This document shows, one piece after another, positions 4,840 through 51,006 of a stretch of DNA of 54,010 bases. Within the stretch, counting starts at the first letter, position 1; each line of letters begins with the position of its first letter. The notes under the pieces are model-generated. The model was not told the DNA's origin and did no database searches. It saw only the letters and a list, made by a program, of their open reading frames with translations. The stretch lies in contig JBAXKN010000001.1 of NCBI GenBank assembly GCA_037135295.1, positions 1 through 54,010 of the forward strand. Reading direction: 5' to 3'. The translations under genes were made by a program, and so were the position numbers. The stretch comes from Candidatus Saccharimonadota bacterium (GTDB lineage: Bacteria > Patescibacteriota > Saccharimonadia > Saccharimonadales > Saccharimonadaceae).

Positions 4840-6512
4840 TTAGTAAATCAAAACAATCTGCATTCACTATTGTCGAGCTTTTAGTGGTTATAGTGGTAAT
4901 TGGAATATTAGCAGCTATTACAATAATTTCATATACAGGTATTAGTCGAAAAGCCACAGAAGCATCATTACAATCAGACTTATCTGGCGCTTCAAGACAA
5001 TTAGAGATGTTTAAAGTAGACAACGGTTCATACCCTACCGCCCCATTGGGAGCAGGTAACTGTACAAATGATCCAAAATACTGTTTAAAACCAAGTTCTG
5101 GCAATACGTTTGACTATGCCGCAACTGGCTTAACTCCCCAGACATACAGCCTGACTGCCACAAATACTAGTAGCGGTATTAGCTATATAGTGACTGAGAG
5201 TACTAAACCTACATTGGCAGTTTCGGCTATAAATCCATTCGTAAAGGTTTACGGAGGGTCAGGTAGTGATTATGCTAGATCTTTAATTAAGACTAGTGAT
5301 GGTGGATTCGCCACTGTTGGAACCACAGACAGCTATGGCGAAGGAATGACCGATGCATTTATTGTAAAGTATAGTTCAAATGGAACAATATCTTGGAATA
5401 AAACATGGGGTGGTTCTTCGTCGGAAGCTGGTGATTCTATAGTACAAACTAGTGATGGTGGATTCGCTATTACTGGTAATACAGCTAGTTTTGGTGTTAA
5501 CGGTAGTCCTGATGTGTTTGTTGCAAAATATAGCGCTGACGGCTCATTATTGTGGGACACAACATGGGGTGATGCTAGCAGTGATTATGGCTATTCAATC
5601 ATTCAAACTAGTGATGGTGGTTTAGCTGTTACTGGGTATTTAACGAATGTAGATGGTCGTGAAGACGCAATTTTACTTAAATACACTTCTGGCGGTACAT
5701 ATTCATGGAGTAAAGCTACTAATGTCTGTGGTATATATGATCCCGATTATGGCAGGGCAATTATCCAAACTAGCGACGGCGGTTATTTAACTGTAGGTAA
5801 AGGTAGCAGGGCAAACGACGGTTTTAACGCTACAAGTAACGCTATTATAAAATACACTACTGATGGCACGGTGTCATGGTTAAAAACATGGAGCTATAAC
5901 GGATATAATAATATCGAGTCAGTTTTTCAAACTAGTGACGGTGGGTATATTGCCACAGGTTCAACGTCTAGCTATTCAAATGGGCTCAGTGTAATAAAGT
6001 TTAACTCTACTGGTGATTTGTTGTGGAATAGAGTATGGAGTGGAGGCAATACAAATTCTGATGGTGGTTATTCCATAATACAGACTAGTGATGGTGGTTT
6101 TGCAATTTCTGGATCAACCGAAATGTATGGCGCAGGTAATTTCGATGTTTTGCTTGCAAAATACAGCTCGGATGGAACTTTGGCATGGAGTAAAACTTGG
6201 GGAGGTTCTGGCTATGACTCAGGCGATTCATTAGTTCAAACTAGTGATGGTGGTTTTGTTATTACTGGCGTTACTGATAGCTATGGAACTGGAGGACAAG
6301 ACATGTTCTTGATAAAATTCAACTCCAGTGGTTCAATAGTCGGTTGTTCTTCACCTATTTGTCAAAGCCCATCAGCCAGTACTTTTAGCCCTGCAATGAC
6401 AATTCTTACACCATGGGCCCCATCGTTTACAAGTCCTTCGTTGCAAATTGGAAATCCATTAGCTATTTCAACAAGCCAACCGATTACTTCCACAGTTATC
6501 ATCGCTCCATAG
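4836..6512 (+). CDS. type IV pilin-like protein (prepilin N-terminal methylation motif) fused to a seven-repeat beta-propeller-like domain
   Basis: N-terminus KQSA/FTIVELLVVIVVIGILAAI is a class III signal/N-methylation motif. There are seven repeats of about 48 aa centred on TSDGG[FYL], resembling SBBP-type propeller repeats. Confidence 0.85.
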   Translation: MISKSKQSAFTIVELLVVIVVIGILAAITIISYTGISRKATEASLQSDLSGASRQLEMFKVDNGSYPTAPLGAGNCTNDPKYCLKPSSGNTFDYAATGLTPQTYSLTATNTSSGISYIVTESTKPTLAVSAINPFVKVYGGSGSDYARSLIKTSDGGFATVGTTDSYGEGMTDAFIVKYSSNGTISWNKTWGGSSSEAGDSIVQTSDGGFAITGNTASFGVNGSPDVFVAKYSADGSLLWDTTWGDASSDYGYSIIQTSDGGLAVTGYLTNVDGREDAILLKYTSGGTYSWSKATNVCGIYDPDYGRAIIQTSDGGYLTVGKGSRANDGFNATSNAIIKYTTDGTVSWLKTWSYNGYNNIESVFQTSDGGYIATGSTSSYSNGLSVIKFNSTGDLLWNRVWSGGNTNSDGGYSIIQTSDGGFAISGSTEMYGAGNFDVLLAKYSSDGTLAWSKTWGGSGYDSGDSLVQTSDGGFVITGVTDSYGTGGQDMFLIKFNSSGSIVGCSSPICQSPSASTFSPAMTILTPWAPSFTSPSLQIGNPLAISTSQPITSTVIIAP

Positions 6513-12391: not shown

Positions 12392-12465
12392 GGCGCGTTG
12401 ACGGAACGGTTACGTAGAGGTCTGCAAAACCTTTTAAATGGGTTCGACTCCCATACGTGCCTCCA
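12392..12465 (+). tRNA. tRNA-Cys(GCA)
   Basis: Acceptor GGCGCGT/ACGTGCC (one G-U), anticodon arm GAGGT/CTGCAAA/ACCTT, T arm ATGGG/TTCGACT/CCCAT, discriminator U, encoded CCA. Confidence 0.9.
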
Positions 12466-12473
12466 AACAATTA

Positions 12474-12560
12474 GCGTGGATGGTGGAATTGGTATACACG
12501 AGAGACTTAAAATCTCTTGGCCTCACGGCCGTGCGGGTTCAAGTCCCGCTCCACGCACCA
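12474..12560 (+). tRNA. tRNA-Leu(UAA)
   Basis: Acceptor GCGTGGA/TCCACGC, anticodon arm AGAGA/CTTAAAA/TCTCT, long variable arm (GGCC..GGCC), T arm GCGGG/TTCAAGT/CCCGC, discriminator A, encoded CCA. Confidence 0.92.
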
Positions 12561-28202: not shown

Positions 28203-31115
28203 ATGAAGCGTTATAATCCAACAGAAATTGAAAAAAAATGGCAAGAAGTTTGGGAAAATGAAGGCACCTATAAAGTAGACTTTTCTGACCATACAAAGCC
28301 AAAATACTACGCAATGAGTATGTTGCCGGGGATTACTGGTGCTGGGATTCATATTGGTCACGGACGAACCTTTCAGTTTAGCGATATTAAAGTTCGATCC
28401 AAGCGTCAGCAAGGATATAATGCATATCATCCTATTGGCTGGGATTCATTTGGTCTTCCAGTTGAAAATTATGCTATAAAAATCGGTAAAAACCCTAGGA
28501 TTGCTCATGATGAAGCTCTAGTTAATTTTAAACGTCAATTAAAGCGACTTGGTTATAGTTATGATTGGTCAAAAGAGATTAGCACGGCTGATCCATCTTA
28601 TTATCGTTGGACTCAATGGATTTTTAATCAATTATTTGAACGTGGTTTAGCCTATCAAAAACAAAGTCCACAATGGTGGTGTGAAACGGATCAAACGGTC
28701 CTTGCAAATGAACAAGTCGAAGCAGGCAAATGTTGGCGATGCGGTAATCAGGTTGTTAAAAAGAATCTTAAACAATGGTTTTTCAAGATTACCGAATATG
28801 CTGATGAAATATTGGATGCAACAGATGATCTAAATTGGACTGAAATGGTAAAAACCATGCAGAAAAATTGGATTGGGCGCTCTCAGGGTGCCGAAGTTGA
28901 ATTCAAGATAGATGGTAGTGATAAAATTATCACTGTTTTCACAACTCGTCCTGATACTCTATTTGGTGCTACTTTTATGGTTATCGCTCCCGAACATAAA
29001 TTTGTAAATGAATTAGTTACAGAAAATACCAAAAGTTCAGTTGAGTCATACGTAACTGAATCAGCTCGTAAATCAGAAATTGAGCGTATGAATGAGTCAC
29101 GCGAAAAAACGGGAGTGTTTACAGGCAGTTATGCTATTAACCCAGCAAATGGTGAAAATATTCCAATCTGGATAGCAGATTATGTATTAGCTGGTTATGG
29201 AACAGGCGCTATAATGGCAGTGCCTGCACATGATGAACGAGATTTTGCCTTTGCCGAAAAATTTAATTTGCCAATTTGTGCAGTTATTTCAAGAGACTTT
29301 GGTGAATTTCTACCAGACTCTAAAGAAGTTAGTGGAGTTGTAGTAATTGGCTATGATTCAAAAACAAAAAAATATATGAGTATCATGAACGGTGATAGGC
29401 GTTGGTTGGTAGGTGGCGGTCACGAGGATGGAGAATCTTATGAACAAACAGCTTATCGTGAACTAAAAGAAGAAGCCGGATTTATTGATGTTCAGAAAAT
29501 GGTTACATTGGGTGATCCTGTTTATTCGTATTATTATAATAGTATAAAAGACAGCAATCGTAGGTCGTTAGCATATAATTTCCTGGTCATGATTGACGCC
29601 AATAACCAAATTGAACAACAACAAGAATCTCATGAAAATTTTTCTGTAGTTTGGTCTGATATCGATGAAATTATTAATGATCTTAAAAAAGAAGATAGTG
29701 GTGCTCATCATTGGTTAGAAATATTATACAGGGCAAAATCAGCTGTAAAGGCCTACGAAACTGGTGATGTATATAAGCCAGACATATATTGTGGCGAAGG
29801 TGTATTGGTAAATTCTAGTGCTTTTGATGGAATGGCGTCAAGTGAAGCTCGTGAGGAAATTGTTGCTTGGCTTGAACAGCAAGGCGTTGGACGTACGAAA
29901 ACTGCATACAAAATGCGGGACTGGTTAATTAGTCGTCAGCGATATTGGGGTGCTCCAATCCCGATTATTCATTGTCCCGAGCATGGTGCTGTGGCAGTTC
30001 CTAATAATCAACTGCCGGTGATTCTACCTGATATCGATGATTACAAACCAAAAGACGGTGAAACCTCAGCTTTAGCTAGCGCTACCGATTGGGTGAATAC
30101 AACATGCCCAAACTGTGGAATGCCCGCGAAACGCGAGACAGACACTATGGATGGTTATGCCTGTAGTAGTTGGTATTTCCTACGCTATTTGGATCCATTT
30201 AATAATAAGCAAGCCTGGGATCCAGAGATTGAAAAGCACTGGGGACCTGTTGATTTTTACAATGGAGCCGACCATGCGGTTGCTCATTTACTGTATTCAC
30301 GTTTTTGGATGCGATTTTTCTATAAAATTGGTCTTGTCTCTACACCAGAACCATTTAAGCGCATGATGTATAACGCCTACATAATGGCACCAGATGGTTC
30401 AAAGATGAGCAAATCTAAAGGTAATACAATCGATCCACTCGAAATAATGGATAGTGGCTATGGCGCTGATAGTTTACGTGTTTACGAAATGTTTATCGCT
30501 CCTTACGATATAGAAGCGCCTTGGGACACTCGCGGTGTGCCTGGCTCATATCGTTTTTTAAACCGTGTTTGGAATTTGACCCAGGAATACATCGAATCTG
30601 GTGATGTTGATTTAGATAAAACTGCTGAAAACGAGATATTATCAATTGCTCATAAAACAGCCAAAAAAATAACCTCTGATATCGAAGACGATAAATTTAA
30701 CACAGCCGTGTCAGCAATGATGGAAGCTGTAAATAACTATTTCAAATTAAAGGAAAAATACAAAATTGGTAAATCACCTGCCTGGGACTTTGCAATCGAA
30801 AGCTTATTGCAGGTATTGTCGCCATTCTCGCCGCATATAACAGAGGAATTATGGCATCAAATAGGTAACAAAGACACTATTCATGTTGATCATTGGCCAA
30901 AGTGGGACAATAAATATCTGCAGTCCGATGTAATGACAATAATAGTCCAAGTGAATGGTAAGTTGCGAGCCAAACTAGAGCTTGCAAAAGATACAGATGA
31001 AGAAGATATTAAAAAACTTGCCTTAGGCAATGATAATGTGAAATTATTTATAGGAAATAAAAAACCGACCAAGGTTATTTATGTTCCTGGTCGGTTAGTG
31101 AATATCGTTGTCTAG
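28203..31115 (+). CDS. leuS: leucyl-tRNA synthetase carrying an inserted Nudix domain
   Basis: HIGH variant (HIGHG), CP1 editing motif TTRPDTLFGATFMVIAPEH, AVPAHDERDF, KMSKS. Total length 970 aa. Confidence 0.95.
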   Translation: MKRYNPTEIEKKWQEVWENEGTYKVDFSDHTKPKYYAMSMLPGITGAGIHIGHGRTFQFSDIKVRSKRQQGYNAYHPIGWDSFGLPVENYAIKIGKNPRIAHDEALVNFKRQLKRLGYSYDWSKEISTADPSYYRWTQWIFNQLFERGLAYQKQSPQWWCETDQTVLANEQVEAGKCWRCGNQVVKKNLKQWFFKITEYADEILDATDDLNWTEMVKTMQKNWIGRSQGAEVEFKIDGSDKIITVFTTRPDTLFGATFMVIAPEHKFVNELVTENTKSSVESYVTESARKSEIERMNESREKTGVFTGSYAINPANGENIPIWIADYVLAGYGTGAIMAVPAHDERDFAFAEKFNLPICAVISRDFGEFLPDSKEVSGVVVIGYDSKTKKYMSIMNGDRRWLVGGGHEDGESYEQTAYRELKEEAGFIDVQKMVTLGDPVYSYYYNSIKDSNRRSLAYNFLVMIDANNQIEQQQESHENFSVVWSDIDEIINDLKKEDSGAHHWLEILYRAKSAVKAYETGDVYKPDIYCGEGVLVNSSAFDGMASSEAREEIVAWLEQQGVGRTKTAYKMRDWLISRQRYWGAPIPIIHCPEHGAVAVPNNQLPVILPDIDDYKPKDGETSALASATDWVNTTCPNCGMPAKRETDTMDGYACSSWYFLRYLDPFNNKQAWDPEIEKHWGPVDFYNGADHAVAHLLYSRFWMRFFYKIGLVSTPEPFKRMMYNAYIMAPDGSKMSKSKGNTIDPLEIMDSGYGADSLRVYEMFIAPYDIEAPWDTRGVPGSYRFLNRVWNLTQEYIESGDVDLDKTAENEILSIAHKTAKKITSDIEDDKFNTAVSAMMEAVNNYFKLKEKYKIGKSPAWDFAIESLLQVLSPFSPHITEELWHQIGNKDTIHVDHWPKWDNKYLQSDVMTIIVQVNGKLRAKLELAKDTDEEDIKKLALGNDNVKLFIGNKKPTKVIYVPGRLVNIVV
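29290..29770 (+). other. in-frame Nudix-domain insertion within leuS (Nudix box at 29412-29483)
   Basis: GGHEDGESYEQTAYRELKEEAGF matches G-x5-E-x7-REUxEExGU at every fixed position. It lies between AVPAHDERDFAFAEKFNLPI and GEGVLVNSSAFDGM, segments that are only a few tens of residues apart in canonical bacterial LeuRS. Confidence 0.8.
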
Positions 31116-39654: not shown

Positions 39655-40200
39655 ATGGAATCAATACGTAAATTAGAAAACGTAATTGGAGGATGGTTAA
39701 AACCACTTCCACATTTGCCGGATACTTGGCGAAAATGGTTATCGGAAAATATCTGGTGGTTAACATTAATAGGGGTAATTTTAGAGGTTATTGCAATATT
39801 CATGCTAGTTGCTGCAATATTTGCTGCAATGGCAGTTGTTAGTACTACAGATGCATTTCTAGGTGCGTATTACAGAGCATCAGTCACAACATATTCTGGA
39901 ATGTGGTATTTTTCATCGATTGTATCAATAATTTTTATTATCGCAACAACAGCTATCACAGCAATGGCTATTAAACCTTTGCAGGGTATGAAGAAAAAAG
40001 GTTGGGACTTGTTATTTATAGTATTTCTATTAGGTGTTGCTTCGTCAGTTGTTAGTGCTGCCCTAAGTCTTACTTATAATGCGTATGGTCTAATACCAAA
40101 CATTGCCTCGGCCATCATTAGTGCTGTTATAGGTGCATATTTCTTATTTGAAATAAGATCACATTTTAACGCTGCTAAAGTAGTCAAAAAAGAAAAATAA
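39655..40200 (+). CDS. hypothetical 4-TM membrane protein
   Basis: 181-aa ORF with AAGGGGGA upstream. Confidence 0.6.
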   Translation: MESIRKLENVIGGWLKPLPHLPDTWRKWLSENIWWLTLIGVILEVIAIFMLVAAIFAAMAVVSTTDAFLGAYYRASVTTYSGMWYFSSIVSIIFIIATTAITAMAIKPLQGMKKKGWDLLFIVFLLGVASSVVSAALSLTYNAYGLIPNIASAIISAVIGAYFLFEIRSHFNAAKVVKKEK

Positions 40201-40250
40201 AATCAATACTTGAGCCGTCACCCTGATTAGTGTACAATTTGTATTGTTAA

Positions 40251-40395
40251 TGGGGTGTCGCCAAGTGGTAAGGTGAGAATTGCCAGACGGCAATTCGCAA
40301 GGCCGGAAGTGCGACGGCACTGAGGCGGGCTCGCGAAATTTATCCCCAGATAAATATTTGTGAGACGGGTTTTGGTCCTGGCACCAAAGCTGTAG
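40251..40395 (+). pseudogene. tRNA-Gln-derived 5' fragment (acceptor 5' strand, D arm, 92-nt insertion, degenerate UUG anticodon arm)
   Basis: 40251-40273 is 23/23 identical to 40434-40456. 40366-40382 matches the anticodon arm of the intact gene at 14/17 positions, including the loop TTTTGGT. The insertion starts with the hairpin GAATTGCC-AGAC-GGCAATTC. TACAAT lies 12 nt upstream, the same spacing as at the intact gene. Confidence 0.65.
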
Positions 40396-40415
40396 AAAAT
40401 TACAGCACTTTAAGA

Positions 40416-40421
40416 TATAAT
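40416..40421 (+). promoter_or_regulatory. -10 element (TATAAT) of tRNA-Gln
   Basis: Perfect TATAAT 12 nt upstream of tRNA nucleotide 1. Confidence 0.45.
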
Positions 40422-40433
40422 TGTTCATTGTAA

Positions 40434-40508
40434 TGGGGTGTCGCCAAGTGGTAAGGCACCGGCTTTTGGTGCCGGCATTCGGGGGTTCGAATCCCTCCAC
40501 CCCAGCCA
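40434..40508 (+). tRNA. tRNA-Gln(UUG)
   Basis: Acceptor TGGGGTG/CACCCCA (U1-A72), D arm GCC/GGC, anticodon arm CCGGC/TTTTGGT/GCCGG, T arm GGGGG/TTCGAAT/CCCTC, discriminator G, encoded CCA. 75 nt. Confidence 0.93.
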
Positions 40509-40511
40509 TAG

Positions 40512-42171: not shown

Positions 42172-42867
42172 ATGGGCGCCGGCTATACAGTTTTTTCATT
42201 TGGTCCTGTTATATTCTTTTTAATTTGTGCCATCTCTTCGGTTGCTTGGCTCACCTTGGCGATGAGCATTGCAATTAAGGGAATCGTAATTGTACCAGAG
42301 AAGAAATCTACTTTTATTAAGCTGTTTTACGTGGCAGCTATCTTTGCTGCTATCTTCTTTTTTGCAGTGGTAAAGTACGAGTGGCTTGGTGGCACTACTT
42401 CTTATGACGGTTTATATCATTCAACGGGTTTTATAGGTAGTATTATAATTGGCATAGTCGCGATTAGTATTAGAGATAATAATAAATTAAGGTCTTTTGG
42501 CGTAGGGTTACTGCCATTTTTCGTGGCAATTGGGTTTTTAATTGTTAATGCAACATTCACATCTGGCGCTTCTGGGGATTTAAATTCCTTATCGTACGTT
42601 ATTGGTTTCTTTTTTGCATCAATTCAGGTTATATACCCGTTGGCCTACTACTTTTACATTAAACAGCCTAGTAATATGCAAGCTGCTATTGATAAACGAA
42701 ATGCAAAAATAGACAAAAAAAATGCTAAAATGGGCATCGCAAACTCAAATCAAATGCCATCTGCATCTACACAACCTACCTATATGCCTCCAACGCAAAC
42801 TGCCGCAACACCACAAACTCAGTCAGAGCCTCTGAATGCCACGCAAGATACTACTAACAGGCAGTAG
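42172..42867 (+). CDS. polytopic membrane protein with a Q/T/P-rich C-terminal tail
   Basis: About 6 TM helices. First gene of the plus-strand half of the lipid locus. Confidence 0.65.
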   Translation: MGAGYTVFSFGPVIFFLICAISSVAWLTLAMSIAIKGIVIVPEKKSTFIKLFYVAAIFAAIFFFAVVKYEWLGGTTSYDGLYHSTGFIGSIIIGIVAISIRDNNKLRSFGVGLLPFFVAIGFLIVNATFTSGASGDLNSLSYVIGFFFASIQVIYPLAYYFYIKQPSNMQAAIDKRNAKIDKKNAKMGIANSNQMPSASTQPTYMPPTQTAATPQTQSEPLNATQDTTNRQ

Positions 42868-45004
42868 ACATTTTGTTGCATTAAAAGAAGCCCGAATACT
42901 TCATGATTCGGGTTGTGAAGTATATACGGCGGATAGTGTAAATTTTGACTATACGATGTATTCTAATGCAGTCAAAAAGCATTTTCTCGTTCCATCTGTA
43001 CGTTTTGAGGAAACGAAGTATATTGAAAAACTTTGTGAAATCATAATAGAGTACAAAATAGATGAGGTTGTAGCTCTTGGTGAGGAAACATTTTACCTAT
43101 CGAATAATATACAAAAGATTCGACAGTCATGTTCCGATGTCTGCATAAAACTAGATAGTCTTGATAAACTTTCCACATTACATAATAAATGGCTCTTTTA
43201 TAAGCTTTCCATGTCTTTAAAATTTACTGTACCGAAAACCGCACTCGTAAAATCACCAAGTGAAATTGCTAAGTTGCAACAGTGGTCATCACAACATAGC
43301 GTGATAAAGCCAATATATTCTCGATTTGGCTATGAGGTAAAAGAACTTTATGATATCAACATGACTGTGCTTGAGAGTCTCGATTGGGACGACGAGGATG
43401 GGTATATCATTCAAGAATATATCAAAGGTGAAGACATATCTTCTTTTTCAATGTCAAGCGATGGGAGTGACATCATCACGTATAAAAGTGCACTAACGAC
43501 TAGTGCACCGGGGGCAATGGCAGCTGCAATAAGGGTAGAAACACCGCAACAAGTGCGTGATATTGATATAAAAATACGTAAAGCGCTTAACTATTCTGGC
43601 CAACTGGGTTTAGATTTTCTATTAACGCCTGATGGTGAAATAGTTCTTCTGGAAGCAAACCCGCGAGCAACAATCGGACGAGTATTAATGCGACAACCAA
43701 AGATTCAATTTAGAATCATGATGCTACATCAGTTTTTAAATGGTTTAATACCGTTACGCGCGTGGCTAAAATATTTTTGGGTAATGACTTGGTATCCTGA
43801 TATGGTATGGAGTTGGAGAGATATTCGTCCGGCTTTTATGAGTCAAATTATGTGCAAGGGTCTTGGAACATATCTGCGTTTTTTGTCACGTCATTCTGGA
43901 GTTAGTTTTCAGGCATACAGCACCTATGACATGGAATATAATGGCGATAAAGTTATAATTTCCAAAGTTGAAAACCCTACAAAAAATGATGATAAAACCA
44001 TATTAAGTTTGTTGGAAGGCCTATCAAGAAAAGGTATGTTCTATTTAATTTATACTCGTCGTCCATCGCCACTACTATCATTTAAACATGAGCAAGCAAA
44101 TATCGGTGTGATAAAAGATAGTCGACAGGATATAAAATACATGTGCGCCTGCTCACATGACGAATACTATATTAACGGAAAATCTTGTGGGTTGGGGTAT
44201 TTGAGCGCAGTCCGGAAAAATCCAACTTTTCAAGGATTTATTGACTGGAGAATGCCATTTTTTAATTATTTTAGCGAAAGAAACTATTTTTTTTCAGTTA
44301 TGAAAAGTAACTCCCGTGCCATTCAAGCATTTACAAGACCCCACGAGTCACTCGTGCTATCAAGTCTGGTTGCAGACTATAATATTATGATCATCAACGC
44401 TCGTCGGATTGCTGTGCCACATCATAGTAAATGTATATTCAAAAATACAGTCGGCATTAATCGGGCAGAGTTGTTGGAATTTATTAATAGGGAAGGACGC
44501 AAATATAATTTCTTTCCGGTCGTGAACGAATATCTGCTTCAGCGCCTCGACATAACGGACAAAAACAGTTTTGTGCTATTGCGTGACGGTAACATAGTTG
44601 GTTTTGCTGGACTTGTAGATCAGAGAAAATGGAAGCAATTCATCATTGTTCGCTATGCGTGGATATTGCGTTTTATTCGAATCCCATTTAATTTGTTTGC
44701 TAGACGCTTAAGTTATATCTCTATTCCAAAACAAGACAAAACAGTTATATGTCCAACGGCGACTATTTTTGTGGTTTCCGAAAACGATCAGAATCTGTAC
44801 AAGGAGTTGTTATATGGTCTTTCTTGTGAAGCTAGAAAGAAAGCTGATATATTCACGTTGGCCGTAACAACAAAAAGCCCACTCTACAGATCGCTCCAGA
44901 CAAGATATAACTTTGCGATTGAAAATAATCTATATATTCAGGAGATAAACGGGCTTGCGGTTGACGGTAAGCAAGTATATGTAGATGCCCTTATGCTATA
45001 CTAG
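42836..45004 (+). CDS. 722-aa fusion: ATP-grasp ligase N-terminal half plus a large C-terminal domain of GNAT/Fem-like character
   Basis: Pre-ATP-grasp ILLTGSRHFVALKEARILHDSGCEVYTADS. ATP-grasp core KW..YKL...VPKT..V....E......VIKP..SRFG, IIQEYIKGEDIS, GLDFLLTPDGEIVLLEANPR. The C-terminal 340 aa have no motif I can name. The GNAT/Fem-like idea is inference. Confidence 0.7.
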   Translation: MPRKILLTGSRHFVALKEARILHDSGCEVYTADSVNFDYTMYSNAVKKHFLVPSVRFEETKYIEKLCEIIIEYKIDEVVALGEETFYLSNNIQKIRQSCSDVCIKLDSLDKLSTLHNKWLFYKLSMSLKFTVPKTALVKSPSEIAKLQQWSSQHSVIKPIYSRFGYEVKELYDINMTVLESLDWDDEDGYIIQEYIKGEDISSFSMSSDGSDIITYKSALTTSAPGAMAAAIRVETPQQVRDIDIKIRKALNYSGQLGLDFLLTPDGEIVLLEANPRATIGRVLMRQPKIQFRIMMLHQFLNGLIPLRAWLKYFWVMTWYPDMVWSWRDIRPAFMSQIMCKGLGTYLRFLSRHSGVSFQAYSTYDMEYNGDKVIISKVENPTKNDDKTILSLLEGLSRKGMFYLIYTRRPSPLLSFKHEQANIGVIKDSRQDIKYMCACSHDEYYINGKSCGLGYLSAVRKNPTFQGFIDWRMPFFNYFSERNYFFSVMKSNSRAIQAFTRPHESLVLSSLVADYNIMIINARRIAVPHHSKCIFKNTVGINRAELLEFINREGRKYNFFPVVNEYLLQRLDITDKNSFVLLRDGNIVGFAGLVDQRKWKQFIIVRYAWILRFIRIPFNLFARRLSYISIPKQDKTVICPTATIFVVSENDQNLYKELLYGLSCEARKKADIFTLAVTTKSPLYRSLQTRYNFAIENNLYIQEINGLAVDGKQVYVDALMLY

Positions 45005-45009
45005 GCATT

Positions 45010-45690
45010 ATGAAATATCTAATTAGTTTACTTAGTGACAAAGTTAACCCATGGGTGTTTGGGTTCTTCGCAATAGGGGCGCTTCTACTACTATTAATAT
45101 CAAGTTATTACTTGTGGCATAAAAAAAATAAAACTTTTCGATTATTCGGTGTTGGACTTGTACTAACTGGACTAGCTTTTACATGTTGGTCGTATGTAAC
45201 AGGCTTTCATCCAGAGAACATCGGGTTATATACAAACATAGGCGTGCTGCTTTTTCTAGGGGCATTGATTTCGTTCTTCCTTTCATATACAAGTACTATT
45301 AAGCGCAAGAAAGCGCGCATAGCATATTGGGCTGTTGGAACAGTCGCACTAGTGGCATTTATAACACTCCGATTCGTGCTACATAAGTCTAATCCTGGAT
45401 TTTCAGAAGACGGCTTTTTTTCTTTCAATATAGACCAATTGGTTGTTTATGCTTATGTTGTTCTGATTGCATTTTCTATGGTACCAGCTGCATATGGAGT
45501 TGCGGCTATAACAAAGAGCGCTCTTTTAGCGGGCGTGACACGGTTTGGTTTTTCGTTAATTACTATCGGTACTGCTATTCTAATCACTAGCCCCGATAAC
45601 TACATGCAAATCATTAATGGTACGGGCATGGTGGTTGGTATTGTTATGATCGCTGCAACACATATTTTTGTGCCGCTGGAATCTAAATAG
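45010..45690 (+). CDS. hypothetical 7-TM membrane protein
   Basis: 226-aa hydrophobic ORF starting 5 nt after the previous stop. Confidence 0.65.
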   Translation: MKYLISLLSDKVNPWVFGFFAIGALLLLLISSYYLWHKKNKTFRLFGVGLVLTGLAFTCWSYVTGFHPENIGLYTNIGVLLFLGALISFFLSYTSTIKRKKARIAYWAVGTVALVAFITLRFVLHKSNPGFSEDGFFSFNIDQLVVYAYVVLIAFSMVPAAYGVAAITKSALLAGVTRFGFSLITIGTAILITSPDNYMQIINGTGMVVGIVMIAATHIFVPLESK

Positions 45691-45692
45691 AA

Positions 45693-46244
45693 TTGTTTGC
45701 TCTTCAGACCTTAACGCTTATTTTACCAGTTTCGGTGTCTGGTGTTATGCTGATTATCTGTCTAAAAACGGGTGCCTTTTCATCGTGGGACATACCAGTA
45801 GATCACGGTATTTTATTTAAGGGTAAATCACTATTCGGTCGAAACAAAACCTACCGTGGTGTGATTATATATATAGTTGGATCTTTGGCTACTACAGTAT
45901 TGCTATGGTCATTACGTCTGAATGGTGAGATGTGGGTTCACTGGGTCTTTGCATATAACCCAATTGTACTGGGTTGCCTTTTTGGTCTTTCATACTCACT
46001 GGGCGAATTGATCAATAGCTTTATTAAACGTCGCCTTGGTATTAAACCGGGAGGTGTAAATTCACATTTTACCGAAATTCAATATTTTTTTGATCTTGTG
46101 GATGGACCGGTTGTAGTAACTATAGTTTTGATTGTTATTTATGGCTTTAGTTGGCAATCTTTGGCGGCCCTGTTTTTTGGGGTTTTAATCCACTGGTTTG
46201 CCGAGTTTGCCATGTATAAGTTAAATCTTAAAAAGAAGCATTAA
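45693..46244 (+). CDS. CDP-archaeol synthase (CarS, DUF46) family CTP-transferase-like membrane protein
   Basis: 183 aa, 5 TM helices. Motifs KGKSLFGRNKTYRG, GELINSFIKRRLGIKPG and a C-terminal YKLNLKK resemble the conserved G(D)GKTWRG / SFIKRR / LNLK blocks I recall for archaeal CarS. Confidence 0.65.
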   Translation: MFALQTLTLILPVSVSGVMLIICLKTGAFSSWDIPVDHGILFKGKSLFGRNKTYRGVIIYIVGSLATTVLLWSLRLNGEMWVHWVFAYNPIVLGCLFGLSYSLGELINSFIKRRLGIKPGGVNSHFTEIQYFFDLVDGPVVVTIVLIVIYGFSWQSLAALFFGVLIHWFAEFAMYKLNLKKKH

Positions 46245-46832
46245 GGCTGTAGCCGCTAGAGGCACAGTAAGGTTATCACTCCCAAAAGGCGAGAAACGTT
46301 CTACTACAGTAACCCCAAGGGCAACTCCCATGGCCATTAATAGCGGTGAGTTTGTACATAAAATTATTACTACACTTGCAATGGCAAAGAAAACAAGTGA
46401 GCCTGCTATCGTCTTCTTGTTTTTATTTAGTAAATATACCGTTAAACCTGCGCCACTATCGGCAAGAGTTAAAATTAAAATACTGGCAACATAAATATAG
46501 GGCGTATGAGACACAAGTACGAGGGGTGCGAGTATACCAATTGGAAGGAACACTTCTCCGTATGTTGGCCGTTTAACGCCATTTATAGATGAGAGTAGTT
46601 TTTTCCGAAATGAGATTGCGATAAACAAAGCCAGAATTGATACAATAAATACATATAACCAGATGGGACCTTCAATAAATCCCAAAGTAGCTACTATACC
46701 TAGTGTTATATGTACAAGTTTACGCGTTATTTCGGGAGAGACACGAAATTTACGACTGGTATACTCGATTACAGTAACGATGACAATTGGTAAAAGTATA
46801 AGTATTGCCGAAATAATAGGACGTCTAATCAT
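46221..46832 (-). CDS. polyprenol (dolichol/phytol) kinase-like protein, CTP-transferase 1 family
   Basis: ITRKLVHITLG and ADSGAGLTVYLLNKNKKTIAGSLVFF patterns are as in SEC59/VTE5-type kinases. I moved the start to ATG 46832 (MIRRP), which forms an ATGA overlap with the upstream GNAT stop. Confidence 0.6.
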   Translation of the reverse strand: MIRRPIISAILILLPIVIVTVIEYTSRKFRVSPEITRKLVHITLGIVATLGFIEGPIWLYVFIVSILALFIAISFRKKLLSSINGVKRPTYGEVFLPIGILAPLVLVSHTPYIYVASILILTLADSGAGLTVYLLNKNKKTIAGSLVFFAIASVVIILCTNSPLLMAMGVALGVTVVERFSPFGSDNLTVPLAATALMLLFKI

Positions 46833-47305
46833 TTTTTCGCCAATCTGACTATATAGATTGCTTGTCGTTTTGCTAAATGACTGGCAACTCGTAGGCATGA
46901 ATGGACGCGTTTTGTAATAAATTTACCTCGGCTTAGTGACGTAATTTCTAAAAGTGAGGATTTATGATAGCCATGGTTGTTACAGAAATGATTGATAATA
47001 TATGGGGAATATGAAGCCACAACGTAAGTCTGGTTTTTTAGAGTCAATTCATCAATAAGTCGAGAAAAAATTCCTTGACGTCGATAGGATGGGTGAATAT
47101 ATGCGCCACCTATTTCGTAAACATTACTACATAAATGCTCAGAGATTAGCCAACCAACAATCTTGTTTTCATCTCGGGCAATGGCGATCTTGTTCGATTT
47201 TAGTGAAGCTTTTGATCGAGGAGTTAGTTCGTCAGTTTCATTAAGTAAGCGAATGATTTCATCTAGGTCTTTTGCGGTGGGATCAGTAGTGACGGTTATA
47301 GCCAT
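46829..47305 (-). CDS. GNAT family acyltransferase
   Basis: Acetyl-CoA-binding motif YRRQGIFSRLIDEL. 158 aa. Confidence 0.75.
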   Translation of the reverse strand: MAITVTTDPTAKDLDEIIRLLNETDELTPRSKASLKSNKIAIARDENKIVGWLISEHLCSNVYEIGGAYIHPSYRRQGIFSRLIDELTLKNQTYVVASYSPYIINHFCNNHGYHKSSLLEITSLSRGKFITKRVHSCLRVASHLAKRQAIYIVRLAKK

Positions 47306-47898
47306 ATGAATCCAATGATGCCAATTATTATCGCTACTGGTGCCCAGAATAATAAGGCGCCTGACTTTCGAGTTTTTATATTAGACAATTGGAGAAGAGC
47401 AAATATTGAAATACAACCGGCAACAAGTAATTGTGGTAGTTGTACTACATGTACAATAATTAAAAATATAAATGTAATTAGTGATAAGTGGCAAGTAATT
47501 AAACCTCGGTAGTAAGTGATGCCTTTTTTCTTTATGTAGCCTTCTTGGTTAAATCCTGCAAGTCGAATTATGCCAGTGGCAATTACAATAAAGCCTACGA
47601 TTGCGCCGAGTGTTCCTGGTAAAATTTCTTTCCAAATGACTAATGCTGAAAGTAGAGAGTAGTTGAATGAATCGACTATACTGTCGAGCTGACGACCGAA
47701 TTCGCTAATAAGATTTAGTTTACGCGCAACGAAACCATCAAGACTATCGAGTAAAAATGCTCCAACCGCCATAACTACACTGGCTTTAAGATTGTTCGAG
47801 AGTAATAGTAAAATTGCTATCCATGAAAAAAGCAGGCTCATCAATGTAATGGCGCCAGGTATATGTAGTTTATTTATTATCTGTTTTGCGTTTTTCAA
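47296..47898 (-). CDS. CDP-alcohol phosphatidyltransferase (phosphatidylserine/archaetidylserine synthase-like)
   Basis: Complete family signature DSLDGFVARKLNLISEFGRQLDSIVD (D-x2-DG-x2-AR-x8-G-x3-D-x3-D) plus about 6 TM helices. Confidence 0.85.
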   Translation of the reverse strand: MKNAKQIINKLHIPGAITLMSLLFSWIAILLLLSNNLKASVVMAVGAFLLDSLDGFVARKLNLISEFGRQLDSIVDSFNYSLLSALVIWKEILPGTLGAIVGFIVIATGIIRLAGFNQEGYIKKKGITYYRGLITCHLSLITFIFLIIVHVVQLPQLLVAGCISIFALLQLSNIKTRKSGALLFWAPVAIIIGIIGFIWL

Positions 47899-50185
47899 GT
47901 ATTATTTCTCCTGATAACCCGTCCATTATAACAAAATCACCATTTTTGTAACGGGTTGTTGAGTCTTGAGCGCCAACTATAGCCGGAATACCAAGCTCGC
48001 GAGCGACGATGGCAACATGTGATAGGGCGTTACCACGTTCTGTTATTACACCCACAGCTTGCGTAAATAGTAGTGTCCAACCCGGATCAATGTGAGTAAC
48101 AACTAAAATTTTACCCGATATATCTAGGTGCGGGTTAAAAGTCGTTGCAACAACAATATATCCGGATACTTTTCCGTTTGAAACACCTGTTCCGAGTTGA
48201 AGTTTACCAGACGGCTTTTTTTCATTAACTAAGTGGATTGGAGCGATTTTGCCCCGCCCTGAAACAAGCAACGACATAGTGCAAGATTCATACTCTTTTA
48301 TTTTATTTTTTCGACTAGTTACTAAATATTTGGCGTTGTAGTCCAATGTGTGACCATTGATAATCTCTTCAATTTCTCGTTCGTATAGATAGTAAATGTC
48401 ACGTGGGGTATCGATAATACCTTCGTCGGAAAACCTCTTGCCAATAACCAAATAGGCATCGCTTGCCATGCGGAATACTTGAGCCCTGTTAAATCTAAAA
48501 CTTTCGCGCCAGTCGATAGCTTGGCGTGTATTTTTTGCAAGGTAGTGTATCAACAGTCCGTGGGTAGAGATTTGCGTTCCGCTATTAGGTGGTGAATTGT
48601 AGTTTGAACCGTTGGAATGGCTAGCGAGTATCATGATGTCTTCTATATTTTCTGTAATAGGAACACTCTCAAGTTTAAGTTCGTCTGGAGTTCTAGCGGA
48701 ATATTTCTTGGTGTACGCCATTGTTTTATCAATACACTCCTGCCATGACTCAGTATTCTTTAATAAATCAATCGTAGTCACATTCTGTTTTTTTATTTGA
48801 GAATTTATAAAGTCTCCGAGTTCTTGAAGCGCTTGAAGTGGTTTAATACTCGCTCGTTTTGTTAAACCTTGTAATACCTGTAAGTACTCTTCGTGACTAT
48901 ATCGCTTGAGAAGTTGTTTTTTTAGCATACCGTGAAATACCATAGTACGAAAGTCATTAAGCACTGGCATAGCCCATAATTCAAGCAAACTACTCTTCGT
49001 TTGTTGGATATTGTAGAAAATAGTGTTGGCATTCACGTTATCAGGTATAGCCTGATGAAGAGCACCGTACCGTTGTGAAAATAGGCGAGTGAACTTTCGA
49101 GAAATTCTAGGAGAATTGAGTATTACCCATATAAACCTGGCTATCGCCATAGTAGATCTTACATCCATTCGTGTAGTGTTCTTTAAAGCACCACGCTTTT
49201 TAACTGGATTTAACATAGATTCAAAATAGACCTGGTTATGTCGACCTGGGATCAACTCGACCAGCTTGTACCAGTTTGAAATACGATAATACACATGACC
49301 ATTTAGATATCCCAGCATATTTTCAAACACGTCTGATTTTGCGTTTAAGATATTTTTATTTATACCGATTATTTGCAAAAACTCTGGGTATACTTGTGCA
49401 TATATCGAACGAATAAATGAATAAGTTAGAGGTAATGTCGTACCTGGGTAGTTTTCTGAAATATTAGTACTATCCCAAACTAGATCATAATCAAGATTTG
49501 TTGTAGTTTGAGGCCGCATTTGCAAGTACACAAGGCTTTTGCCGTCATATGACCACTCAATATCAAGTGGCATATTAAGTGTCTGTTCTAGTCTACTTAC
49601 TTCATTAGCGAGTTTCCGCATGTGGCTAGGTGCTACGCTATTGGCGATGCTAATTTTTGGAACCAAATATTGCTTAGCAGACTCATTCTCTACAACGGCG
49701 TTCTTCCATGAGTCGGTGTAGACAATGTGCATATTACCATTACCGTCTTCACTAAAAATAACGCCACTCTGTTTTCCATAAAACATCTCTTGAACGATCA
49801 ACGAACCACCAGCTTTTAGCTCTAAACCATGTTTACACGCATATTGTCTTACGCCTTCGCTGAATGTACTTTTATAACAATCAATAATGTATTTTTTCAG
49901 TGCTGTTTTTGAATATGTGATGTCGACAAATGACTTGTATTGACCAGCAAATGAAGAGCGCTCACCGTCTTCTTGAAGCGCCGATGTCCGAAAACTTACC
50001 TTGCCCCAACCTTTTTTTTCAAGCTCGAGGTGTACCTTGTCTATAGCTGCATTATTAAGGGTTATTATGTCCGTCTTGCGATTTTTTTCAATGGCTTCAT
50101 CGAACGGTATAATTAAAAAATCTGGTACCGAAAGCTGGAACTCGTCTCTCAATCGAATCAAATTATTCGCTTTGTTGCCTATCAT
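47870..50185 (-). CDS. three-domain PEP-utilising-enzyme-family dikinase (rifampin-phosphotransferase-like architecture)
   Basis: N-terminal PPDK_N/ATP-grasp motifs (GNKANNL, SFRTSALQEDGERSSFAGQYKSF, LIVQEMF..QSGVIFS). An unassignable central region of about 430 aa. C-terminal swivel His domain ERGNALSHVAIVARELGIPAIVG. I moved the start to ATG 50185 (MIGNKANNL), which overlaps the UbiA stop as ATGA. Confidence 0.8.
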   Translation of the reverse strand: MIGNKANNLIRLRDEFQLSVPDFLIIPFDEAIEKNRKTDIITLNNAAIDKVHLELEKKGWGKVSFRTSALQEDGERSSFAGQYKSFVDITYSKTALKKYIIDCYKSTFSEGVRQYACKHGLELKAGGSLIVQEMFYGKQSGVIFSEDGNGNMHIVYTDSWKNAVVENESAKQYLVPKISIANSVAPSHMRKLANEVSRLEQTLNMPLDIEWSYDGKSLVYLQMRPQTTTNLDYDLVWDSTNISENYPGTTLPLTYSFIRSIYAQVYPEFLQIIGINKNILNAKSDVFENMLGYLNGHVYYRISNWYKLVELIPGRHNQVYFESMLNPVKKRGALKNTTRMDVRSTMAIARFIWVILNSPRISRKFTRLFSQRYGALHQAIPDNVNANTIFYNIQQTKSSLLELWAMPVLNDFRTMVFHGMLKKQLLKRYSHEEYLQVLQGLTKRASIKPLQALQELGDFINSQIKKQNVTTIDLLKNTESWQECIDKTMAYTKKYSARTPDELKLESVPITENIEDIMILASHSNGSNYNSPPNSGTQISTHGLLIHYLAKNTRQAIDWRESFRFNRAQVFRMASDAYLVIGKRFSDEGIIDTPRDIYYLYEREIEEIINGHTLDYNAKYLVTSRKNKIKEYESCTMSLLVSGRGKIAPIHLVNEKKPSGKLQLGTGVSNGKVSGYIVVATTFNPHLDISGKILVVTHIDPGWTLLFTQAVGVITERGNALSHVAIVARELGIPAIVGAQDSTTRYKNGDFVIMDGLSGEIILEKRKTDNK

Positions 50186-51006
50186 ATAAACAACAATAAC
50201 CCTTGGATTGCCAGTGATATGCCAAACGCTGCTTGTATCAACTCGAATTTTCCAGAATAAGTAAATAATACCGAAATCAGAGCTAATATTAAATGCCAAA
50301 TATTACCAGTTATAACAGATAGAAAAATACCGATAAATGACACCATTGTTATAAGTAGTACAGTTGTAAAAGGCGCACCCCATACGGCAGGGTAGGAATC
50401 TTTAACGATCTTACCATGTGTATTATGACGATATTCTAGTTTTCGAATAATTTCGAATACAGACATTGTCATTACGAATGCCAGACCGCCGAGTAGCGCC
50501 CTAAGGTTTAGCTGTACGCCAAAAGTTATAAAACCCCACATAGCAAACACGACAAATATCATCTGATGAGTAATAAAATATATAGTAAAGTGTTTATTCA
50601 GCCATGATGATATAAAAAATTCTTTTGCTGTCAACGCAGAGTATACTAGCACCGGTATGTAAAATATGACTGCTTTAGGGTTGATAATATACAATGAGCC
50701 GAGTTCAATAATAAGTGAGATTACTCCAATGCCAATTAATTGCCGTGAGCTGATTGCTCCGCGTTGAAAAGGACGGTTGGGGTAGTTTTTAGAGTCATGA
50801 TCTATATCTTTGAACTCATCAGTTACTCGAAGTCGTAGTAGGAATGCCGCAAATGATAAAGCTACTAGCCCTATGATTACGAAACTAGTCGCAGTACCAG
50901 TAAGATGACTACATACACCCATAATCATCAAGCTGTAGCTAAGCGACAGTAATAAGACAAGTTGGACTGGAAAACGTTCTTTAAAGTACAGGATGATTGA
51001 ATTCAT
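50182..51006 (-). CDS. UbiA-superfamily prenyltransferase (divergent)
   Basis: First Asp-rich motif TDEFKDIDHD followed by NRPFQRG. 8-9 TM helices. The second Asp-rich motif is poorly conserved. Confidence 0.7.
   Translation of the reverse strand: MNSIILYFKERFPVQLVLLLSLSYSLMIMGVCSHLTGTATSFVIIGLVALSFAAFLLRLRVTDEFKDIDHDSKNYPNRPFQRGAISSRQLIGIGVISLIIELGSLYIINPKAVIFYIPVLVYSALTAKEFFISSWLNKHFTIYFITHQMIFVVFAMWGFITFGVQLNLRALLGGLAFVMTMSVFEIIRKLEYRHNTHGKIVKDSYPAVWGAPFTTVLLITMVSFIGIFLSVITGNIWHLILALISVLFTYSGKFELIQAAFGISLAIQGLLLFI

Follow-up and report, generated by a model that had tools for sequence, protein, structure and literature searches.

The window analysed in this work is a 54,010-nucleotide stretch of the Candidatus Saccharimonadota bacterium assembly GCA_037135295.1 (contig JBAXKN010000001.1, positions 1 to 54,010). 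It carries a gene for a three-domain dikinase of the rifampin phosphotransferase (RPH) type, which overlaps the genes of a UbiA-superfamily prenyltransferase and a CDP-alcohol phosphatidyltransferase. Judging by the predicted fold and the conserved catalytic residues, this protein is an intact RPH-type enzyme with a phosphohistidine swivel domain. The whole clade to which it belongs is tied to UbiA and lipid head-group enzymes by gene overlaps, by synteny across many phyla and by gene fusions. Although the enzyme family itself is known, the clade, its gene context and the predicted substrate class are new.

The dikinase gene occupies positions 47870..50185 on the minus strand and was characterised with Pfam, NCBIfam, AlphaFold2 and Foldseek. 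Translation from the ATG at 50185 gives a product of 771 aa with the N-terminus MIGNKANN. A public gene call on an identical sequence (P0001) also has 771 aa, and the relatives share the start motif. The open reading frame (ORF) in this place (47870..50299, minus strand) starts from an upstream TTG and would code for 809 aa. This start was rejected, as the homologues and the public call begin with MIGNKA and the extension falls within the UbiA gene. The ATG overlaps the UbiA stop codon as ATGA, while the 3' end of the gene overlaps the TTG start of the CDP-alcohol transferase gene by 29 nt; both overlaps had been described in the initial annotation of this DNA and are indeed present in the sequence. 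Similar dikinase/transferase overlaps (29, 59, and 14 nt) are found in the independent gene calls of relatives. The length of 771 aa, the PPDK_N-type N-terminus and the C-terminal His swivel domain reported at that stage were borne out by Pfam and translation.

The ATP-grasp domain at the N-terminus (approximately aa 1-232, 49490..50185, minus strand) matches PPDK_N (PF01326, E 2e-24) and is devoid of a helical insert of about 30 aa present in actinobacterial relatives (alignment columns 64-93). It is followed by a central all-helical putative substrate-binding domain (approximately aa 245-640, 48266..49453, minus strand), delineated with the AlphaFold2 model and Foldseek. The C-terminal phosphohistidine swivel domain (47870..48208, minus strand) matches PF00391 at aa 691-759 (E 1e-23). 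Its NALSHVAIV string lies at 48005-48031, and translation places the codon of His723 at 48017-48019. No Pfam match to the TIM barrel of PEP-utilizers_C (PF02896) was found in the dikinase.

The AlphaFold2 model was built on 18 relatives and has a mean pLDDT (predicted local distance difference test) of 78. Its central region is entirely helical. In the Foldseek comparison with PDB, 750-900 columns were aligned with RPH entries only (E 7e-30 for 5hv1). Template modelling (TM) scores of the top entries (5hv1, 5fbs, 5fbt, and 5fbu) were 0.45-0.49, values probably limited by the orientation of domains in the model. Phosphoenolpyruvate (PEP) synthase, pyruvate phosphate dikinase (PPDK) and Enzyme I match via the ATP-grasp or swivel domains only, PEP synthase and PPDK over at most about 330 columns. 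The architecture had initially been taken to be that of RPH and not of PEP synthase, with a PEP/pyruvate-binding TIM barrel in the central domain named as the feature that would speak against it; the central domain is helical, without such a barrel, and RPH is the only full-length fold match, so this proposal holds.

At the sequence level, the best solved relative is the Listeria rifampin phosphotransferase. The family profile matches RPH among the PDB sequences with 234 bits: the ATP-grasp domain aligns, as do profile positions 503-801 with RPH positions 555-865, and the first half of the central domain has no sequence alignment to RPH. Identity over the structural alignment is about 18%. The best NCBIfam match is NF004881 (388 bits against a cut-off of 883), which aligns aa 181-763 of the dikinase with profile positions 265-889. 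The initial statement that the central 430 or so residues match nothing was therefore wrong: NF004881 aligns across this region, and the fold is shared with the rifampin-binding domain of RPH. A more recent Pfam family, PF27448 (Rph_4th), is present in some of the relatives. When the central domain was searched exhaustively over 1.84e9 representatives, 1540 of them matched at E<=1e-3.

In RPH-Lm, Lys22 and Arg117 serve the ATP site, and His825 passes on the phosphate, to be held by Arg666 and Glu667 close to Lys670 (PMC4844700). K5 and R66 of the window dikinase align with Lys22 and Arg117; at least 90% of the sequences in an alignment of 18 have K5, and R66, D208, E210, Q222, and R224 are each at least 95% conserved among 79 relatives. 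His723 aligns with His825 and is retained in 78 of the 79. The segment R560-E561-S-F-R564 (48494..48508, minus strand; translation checked) is the counterpart of the Arg666-Glu667...Lys670 phosphate-transfer network according to the alignment with 5fbs, and R560, E561, and R564 are invariant in the same set of relatives. Since both the domain order of RPH and the catalytic His with the Arg-Glu...Lys/Arg network are conserved, the conversion of ATP to AMP and Pi typical of dikinases can be presumed by analogy. About 35 central-domain residues, including W237-D238-..N241-..E244, are at least 95% conserved over both operon types described below despite an overall identity of only about 28%, suggesting one common acceptor.

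The gene neighbourhoods were counted for the 80 best dikinase loci, 46 of which belong to what we call the long operon type; some taxonomic labels of metagenome-assembled genomes (MAGs) among these loci may be unreliable. In 70 of the 80 loci, a gene of the same UbiA subfamily is located near the dikinase gene; with few exceptions, it is the immediate upstream neighbour on the same strand. The UbiA-linked loci come from many bacterial phyla, a Woesearchaeota and a Halobacteriales MAG, while four other DPANN-labelled loci lack UbiA. Co-occurrence with UbiA, which the initial annotation had put forward for checking, is thus conserved well past the close relatives. In 38 of 69 loci examined, the dikinase has a possible start codon whose overlap with the UbiA stop is exactly 4 nt; our script takes the start nearest to the UbiA stop, which favours small distances, but the exact value of -4 is nonetheless specific.

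Two of the loci deserve a comment on their labels. The one labelled 'Akkermansia muciniphila' (L041) has dense ORFs in all six reading frames, a pattern associated with GC-rich DNA. The other, from a 'Gammaproteobacteria' MAG with a GC content of 0.37 (L035), bears an operon of the type found in Actinobacteria and the candidate phyla radiation (CPR).

The short operon type, to which the window belongs, consists of genes for UbiA, the dikinase, the CDP-alcohol transferase, a GNAT acetyltransferase and a membrane protein, followed by a convergent gene for a CarS-like protein. The closest relative (74% identity), from a Candidatus Saccharibacteria MAG, has the same eight-gene arrangement as the window. 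Short-type operons with dikinases of 35-47% identity come from Micrococcales of freshwater and soil (Rhodoluna, Agreia, Leucobacter, Conyzicola, and Demequina) as well as from a gammaproteobacterial MAG; the six-gene set that extends from Saccharibacteria to Agreia and Leucobacter has dikinases of 39-47% identity. A Komeilibacteria locus (31% identity) also has a short-type operon, in which GNAT was not detected, and a Peribacteria contig ends just past the dikinase gene, so that only UbiA and the dikinase are visible. The CDP-alcohol transferase is encoded in essentially every short-type locus with a sufficient flank, which upholds the proposed linkage with this gene within the window's own clade. 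The small GNAT gene and the CarS-like gene, the latter in its convergent orientation, are conserved in these loci too. In a neighbour-joining tree (a crude method), the short-type dikinases form one clade in which the window protein is nested among those of freshwater Microbacteriaceae.

Full-length relatives with 26-31% identity were found in Cyanobacteria, Verrucomicrobiota, Planctomycetota, Bacteroidota, Acidobacteriota, Chloroflexota, Firmicutes, Proteobacteria, and Melainabacteria, as well as in a Halobacteriales MAG and DPANN archaea. In the long-type operons UbiA is again followed by the dikinase, and the other genes code for DUF3419 (the family of the betaine-lipid synthase BtaA/BTA1; 36 of the 46 loci), a 340-aa GNAT (35 loci), a fatty-acid CoA ligase (26 loci) and HMG-CoA reductase (18 loci). 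They also include a membrane protein of about 440 aa, whose N-terminal half corresponds to the 203-aa membrane protein of the window (hhalign probability 99.8%). The type-specific genes never mix: none of the long-type genes occur in short-type loci, and vice versa. The common core is made up of UbiA, the dikinase and the COG0170-like membrane protein, and the head-group module is swapped. GNAT was left out of this core because hhalign gave a probability of just 2% for the short-type GNAT against the 340-aa one, which leaves orthology unsupported.

Two independent fusions of the dikinase with DUF3419, 1336 aa (L090:7001-11011) and 1206 aa (L091:7001-10621) in length, are each located within a full long-type operon, with a second UbiA gene a few kb downstream. 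Another kind of rearrangement is the loss of the ATP-grasp domain: about 25 of the top 150 central-domain representatives are 520-580 aa long and lack it. Those of 550-562 aa on contigs L085-L089 (e.g., L088:5390-7042) consist of the central and swivel domains only. All three such variants that were looked up are located in short-type operons; two of them have the 4-nt overlap with a complete UbiA call, and on the third contig the gene upstream is truncated by the end of the contig and lacks a Pfam call. A PPDK_N gene was not found near any of the three. By their domain composition, the predicted proteins must depend either on an ATP-grasp partner acting in trans, as in split phenol/aryl kinases, or on another phosphodonor.

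The DPANN loci (L040, L044, L052, L064, and L065 from Woesearchaeota and Nanoarchaeota) have a gene for the 340-aa GNAT after the dikinase gene and two genes for paralogous membrane proteins of about 175 aa divergently transcribed upstream of it. In L044, L052 and L064 there is also an adjoining gene for a PlsC-like acyltransferase, read by eye from the 'IIAANHP' motif alone. Among these five loci, only L052 keeps both UbiA and DUF3419 nearby.

A lipid or head-group substrate would fit all of the context evidence. In the mechanism we propose, His723 of the swivel domain would take the beta-phosphate of ATP, with the release of AMP and Pi, and the swivel domain would then hand the phosphate over to an acceptor held by the helical central domain beside R560, E561, and R564. 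The acceptor would be a hydrophobic isoprenoid-lipid intermediate linked to the co-translated UbiA prenyltransferase. The likeliest target appears to be the UbiA product, a prenylated alcohol, at its free hydroxyl; phosphorylation there would yield a lipid phosphomonoester. CTP-dependent activation of the phosphomonoester by the CarS-like enzyme could follow, the PssA-like CDP-alcohol transferase could couple the activated lipid to serine or a similar alcohol, and GNAT would N-acetylate the head group in the last step. We infer the acceptor from the gene context; the order of steps and the role of the COG0170-like protein are inferred as well. Phosphorylation of the UbiA product is accordingly put forward tentatively, as an assignment to which we give slightly less than even confidence.

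Several observations favour phosphorylation of the UbiA product. The order in which UbiA is followed by the dikinase and then by a head-group enzyme is kept in both operon types, and in some genomes the dikinase is fused to the head-group enzyme. Moreover, CarS-type enzymes such as CDP-archaeol synthase require a lipid phosphomonoester as their substrate, which is what this reaction would supply. The presence of HMG-CoA reductase in many long-type loci suggests that the prenyl donors are made de novo rather than salvaged.

Other observations weigh against it. The COG0170-like protein, overlooked in the initial annotation, is a putative CTP-dependent lipid kinase and could by itself make the phosphomonoester that CarS needs. 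In the long-type operons the dikinase is retained in the absence of CarS and the CDP-alcohol transferase, and the model enzyme for DUF3419, BtaA, has a free hydroxyl as its target; the phosphate therefore does not serve solely for CDP activation. The 550-560-aa variants which lack ATP-grasp in otherwise identical operons would, from their sequences, need a partner in trans for any ATP-driven reaction. Neither geranylgeranylglyceryl phosphate (GGGP) synthase nor glycerol-1-phosphate (G1P) dehydrogenase is encoded in the cluster. Finally, with an identity of about 18% between the central domain and its counterpart in RPH, the specificity of the RPH pocket cannot be transferred to the window protein.

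The main rival explanation places the dikinase before the UbiA step: together with the COG0170-like kinase it would convert a prenol to prenyl phosphate and further to prenyl diphosphate, the UbiA donor. A similar salvage exists in plants, where VTE5 and VTE6 feed phytol into the reactions of UbiA-family transferases, and the affinities of the membrane protein to COG0170, PF01148, and DUF92 match the VTE5/VTE6 families. What both operon types have in common is precisely the trio of UbiA, the dikinase and the COG0170-like protein, tight translational coupling of UbiA and the dikinase fits this scheme, and the operon is present in host-dependent CPR and DPANN lineages, thought to be lipid scavengers. 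However, HMG-CoA reductase in 18 of the 46 long-type loci suggests de novo isoprenoid supply, free-living Actinomycetota and cyanobacteria produce prenyl diphosphates anyway, and the fusions join the dikinase to DUF3419, a head-group enzyme, and not to UbiA. Salvage would also require a phosphate monoester as the acceptor, which is unprecedented in the dikinase superfamily, whose acceptors known to us are hydroxyl or enol oxygens. We consider such a role unlikely, if still worth keeping in mind. Another possibility is that the phosphate is placed only transiently on a hydroxyl or carbonyl oxygen and serves as a leaving group driving a condensation, e.g., of a lipid with another moiety. Three members of the same superfamily, PigC, RedH, and HapC, act via a phosphorylated intermediate (PMC13534948), the window protein scores as well with the PigC model (156 bits) as with the RPH one (142 bits), and the retention of the dikinase in long-type operons devoid of the CDP-activation step would be explained. 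On the other hand, the PigC score is about an order of magnitude under the cut-off of 1300, a feature binding the second substrate cannot be shown, and the CarS-like and CDP-alcohol transferase genes of the window favour a stable phosphomonoester. This makes a condensation role rather improbable. Orthology to PigC or RedH, as distinct from a similar mechanism, was rejected (156 bits against 1300 and 134 bits against 1350, respectively).

Two further explanations were considered. The three-domain fold and the catalytic residues shared with RPH could point to a rifamycin-inactivating resistance enzyme. Yet the scores are far below the cut-offs (141.8 bits against 999 for NF041857 and 86 against 1700 for NF000283), identity over the structural alignment is low as given above, the first half of the central domain remains unaligned by sequence, and the gene is part of an operon with five lipid-enzyme genes conserved in many phyla, so that a resistance function is hardly credible. 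Even less can be said for an ordinary PEP synthase or PPDK of central metabolism, which can practically be discounted despite the legacy NCBIfam names and JGI labels such as 'pyruvate, water dikinase'. There is no TIM barrel, the His domain is C-terminal and not central, and the central domain is helical; solved structures of PEP synthase and PPDK match the terminal domains only, and the scores are low (116 bits against 740 for TIGR01418, 41 against 843 for TIGR01828). Besides, RPH-type enzymes do not use pyruvate (PMC4844700).

Turning to the neighbours of the dikinase, five genes on the minus strand overlap serially (UbiA, the dikinase, the CDP-alcohol transferase, GNAT, and the membrane protein), and three genes on the plus strand converge on this operon (CarS-like, a 226-aa membrane protein and a 722-aa ATP-grasp protein). 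The UbiA-superfamily prenyltransferase (274 aa, 50182..51006, minus strand) is recognised by PF01040 (45.1 bits, cut-off 34.2). Its best NCBIfam match is PRK13592 (45.7 bits against a cut-off of 443), and no equivalog cut-off is reached. Its closest solved relatives by profile are the digeranylgeranylglyceryl phosphate (DGGGP) synthase 6m31 (E 3e-6) and, after it, chlorophyll synthase. The motifs Y.ERFP and R..DE.KD...D......RP..RG are conserved in the subfamily, and R60..D63-E64.K.D67...D71, the Asp-rich first motif, is invariant among 22 sequences. By these sequence features, the window UbiA is a member of a distinct subfamily.

The CDP-alcohol phosphatidyltransferase (200 aa, TTG start, 47296..47898, minus strand; PF01066, 59.9 bits) is closest to PssA (TIGR00473, 62.8 bits) and arch_ser_synth (55 bits), both scores being below the cut-offs. 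Its catalytic motif D-x2-DG-x2-AR-x8-G-x3-D-x3-D is complete: LDSLDGFVARKLNLISEFGRQLDSIVD. The start of the small GNAT acetyltransferase gene (158 aa, 46829..47305, minus strand; PF13508 and PF00583) overlaps the transferase stop by 10 nt.

The gene for the COG0170-like membrane protein (46221..46832, minus strand) overlaps the GNAT stop as ATGA. Its product is probably 203 aa long, starting from M23 of a 225-aa ORF; this length is backed by public gene calls, and the homologues are labelled 'dolichol kinase' or COG0170. A distant homologue with PF01148 is named 'diacylglycerol/polyprenol kinase family protein'. The family has conserved motifs RKxxH, LTFAD..AALVG, KS.EGS, and G.DNL.IP. Two of its 19 members match PF01148 (2.6e-5) and two weakly match DUF92; the window member has no Pfam match. 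The AlphaFold model (pLDDT 90) has nine helices and no match among PDB folds at E<0.7, CdsA and CarS included. Comparison of the family profile with PDB sequences gave no match either, and hhalign comparisons with the CarS-like, CDP-alcohol transferase, UbiA, and 226-aa membrane protein families were all negative. Since no PDB fold matches, the assignment of this protein as a putative dolichol/phytol/diacylglycerol-type kinase draws on weak sequence evidence and is tentative.

The CarS-like cytidylyltransferase of the CDP-archaeol synthase family (183 aa, 45693..46244, plus strand) is a family member by PF01864 (46.1 bits, cut-off 22) and scores 55.9 bits with NF003114, whose cut-off is 148. 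Its gene runs convergently towards the operon, and the two share 24 nt where their 3' ends meet. The 226-aa membrane protein (45010..45690, plus strand) has no significant Pfam match and appears as an accessory member of the cluster: its homologues are encoded in the cluster at L005, L014, and L002 and just upstream of UbiA in Rhodoluna-like loci. The 722-aa protein (42836..45004, plus strand) combines an ATP-grasp ligase domain (aa 1-290; PF02655, NF005315 PRK06849 184 bits) with a C-terminal region of about 430 aa, whose last 423 aa have neither a Pfam match nor a match among PDB sequences. Its presence in the cluster is limited to the window and the Saccharibacteria MAG (L005/L001), and from its sequence the protein may be a lineage-specific ligase decorating the head group.

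Taken as a whole, the operon may encode a membrane-lipid pathway in which the RPH-type dikinase acts as a lipid kinase and the product is an isoprenoid-anchored amino-acid lipid. The head-group modules would be interchangeable: a CTP-dependent one (CarS-like and PssA-like proteins) leading to a phosphoserine-type head group, and a S-adenosylmethionine-dependent one (BtaA-like DUF3419) leading to a homoserine-type head group, with N-acylation after either of them. Such a pathway would be spread over many bacterial phyla, CPR, DPANN archaea and at least one haloarchaeal MAG, and the copy in Saccharibacteria would stem from an exchange with their actinobacterial hosts. We offer this broad scheme as a speculation that, taken together, is less likely than not.

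To our knowledge, the roles assigned within the RPH-type family so far are drug inactivation and pigment condensation only. This group of dikinases was called 'large unexplored' (PMC4844700), and the database names of the family are either legacy ('PEP synthase') or generic. Within the library available for searching, we found no description of a UbiA-dikinase operon or of a lipid role for RPH-type enzymes; the UbiA-containing operon of the Lipocone paper is a different one. If our proposal is true, it would provide the first physiological role of the RPH-type family in membrane-lipid synthesis and define a new class of isoprenoid amino-acid lipids in bacteria. As enzymes resembling DGGGP synthase, CarS and archaetidylserine synthase are used, it would also bear on the bacterial/archaeal 'lipid divide', and Saccharibacteria would prove to have lipid genes in common with their Actinomycetota hosts. 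The proposal can be tested directly in cultured carriers, i.e., Agreia pratensis VKM Ac-2510, Leucobacter coleopterorum HDW9A and Brevibacillus laterosporus.

The remaining genes of the window are ordinary chromosomal ones, e.g., those for ribonucleotide reductase, LigA and LeuRS. The leucyl-tRNA synthetase (28203-31115, plus strand) has an unusual insertion, a NUDIX hydrolase domain (aa 402-499, E 7e-12) after the editing domain. At 2464-6512 (plus strand), a gene for a 791-aa protein with six stretches of collagen triple-helix repeats is followed by an overlapping gene for a 558-aa protein with a type-IV-pilin N-terminal methylation motif and DUF5122 beta-propeller repeats; from their sequence features, both may serve an epibiont at its surface or in attachment. 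A tRNA 3' fragment at 1-51 is cut by the window start, a tRNA-Cys/tRNA-Leu pair is located at 12392-12560 and tRNA-Gln at 40434-40508. The 116-aa ORF overlapping the latter (40159-40509, minus strand) is probably not a gene.

Among the systems described so far, RPH-Lm (PDB 5FBS/5FBT/5HV1; Stogios et al. 2016, PMC4844700) is the sole full-length structural match to the window dikinase. The order of the ATP-grasp domain, the helical domain and the C-terminal His swivel is the same, and the catalytic His and the Arg-Glu...Lys/Arg residues are conserved. The window protein differs in its shortened ATP-grasp domain, and while RPH-Lm stands alone as a resistance gene, the window dikinase sits in a lipid operon with overlapping genes; rifamycin is very unlikely to be its substrate. 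The best matches among sequence families, NF004881 and NF004882 (PRK06241.2, legacy name 'phosphoenolpyruvate synthase'), cover the central domain, and we found no characterised member in either of them. A Brevibacillus relative from the 26-31%-identical group (L055) scores 790 bits with NF004881, and its gene is located directly after UbiA in the sister operon. The window protein stays below half of the cut-off of 883 and belongs to a separate clade of Actinomycetota and CPR; where the window has CarS and the CDP-alcohol transferase, the NF004881-like sister operon has DUF3419, acyl-CoA ligase and HMG-CoA reductase.

PigC, RedH, and HapC share with the window dikinase the three-domain superfamily, hydrophobic small molecules as substrates and phosphate delivery by His. 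They differ in using the phosphate as a leaving group in condensation, and the window has no prodiginine genes. Phenylphosphate synthase is a split phenol kinase of the PEP synthase family. Together with other split aryl/phenol kinases (HpeI, PDB 9GOJ; MarK), it exemplifies a phosphorelay from ATP-grasp via the His domain onto a hydroxyl and sets a precedent for a separately encoded ATP-grasp domain, which the variants lacking this domain would have to rely on. Their substrates are aromatic, however, the contexts are catabolic, and only the ATP-grasp part matches. The closest parallel to the gene set as a whole is the archaeal route from DGGGP synthase of the UbiA family via CarS to archaetidylserine synthase: three window genes belong to the same families, and in a bacterium. 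All three are below the equivalog cut-offs, and GGGP synthase and G1P dehydrogenase are missing. We know of no RPH-type enzyme in the archaeal phospholipid pathway; to this archaeal-type set, the window cluster adds the dikinase, the putative COG0170-like kinase and GNAT.

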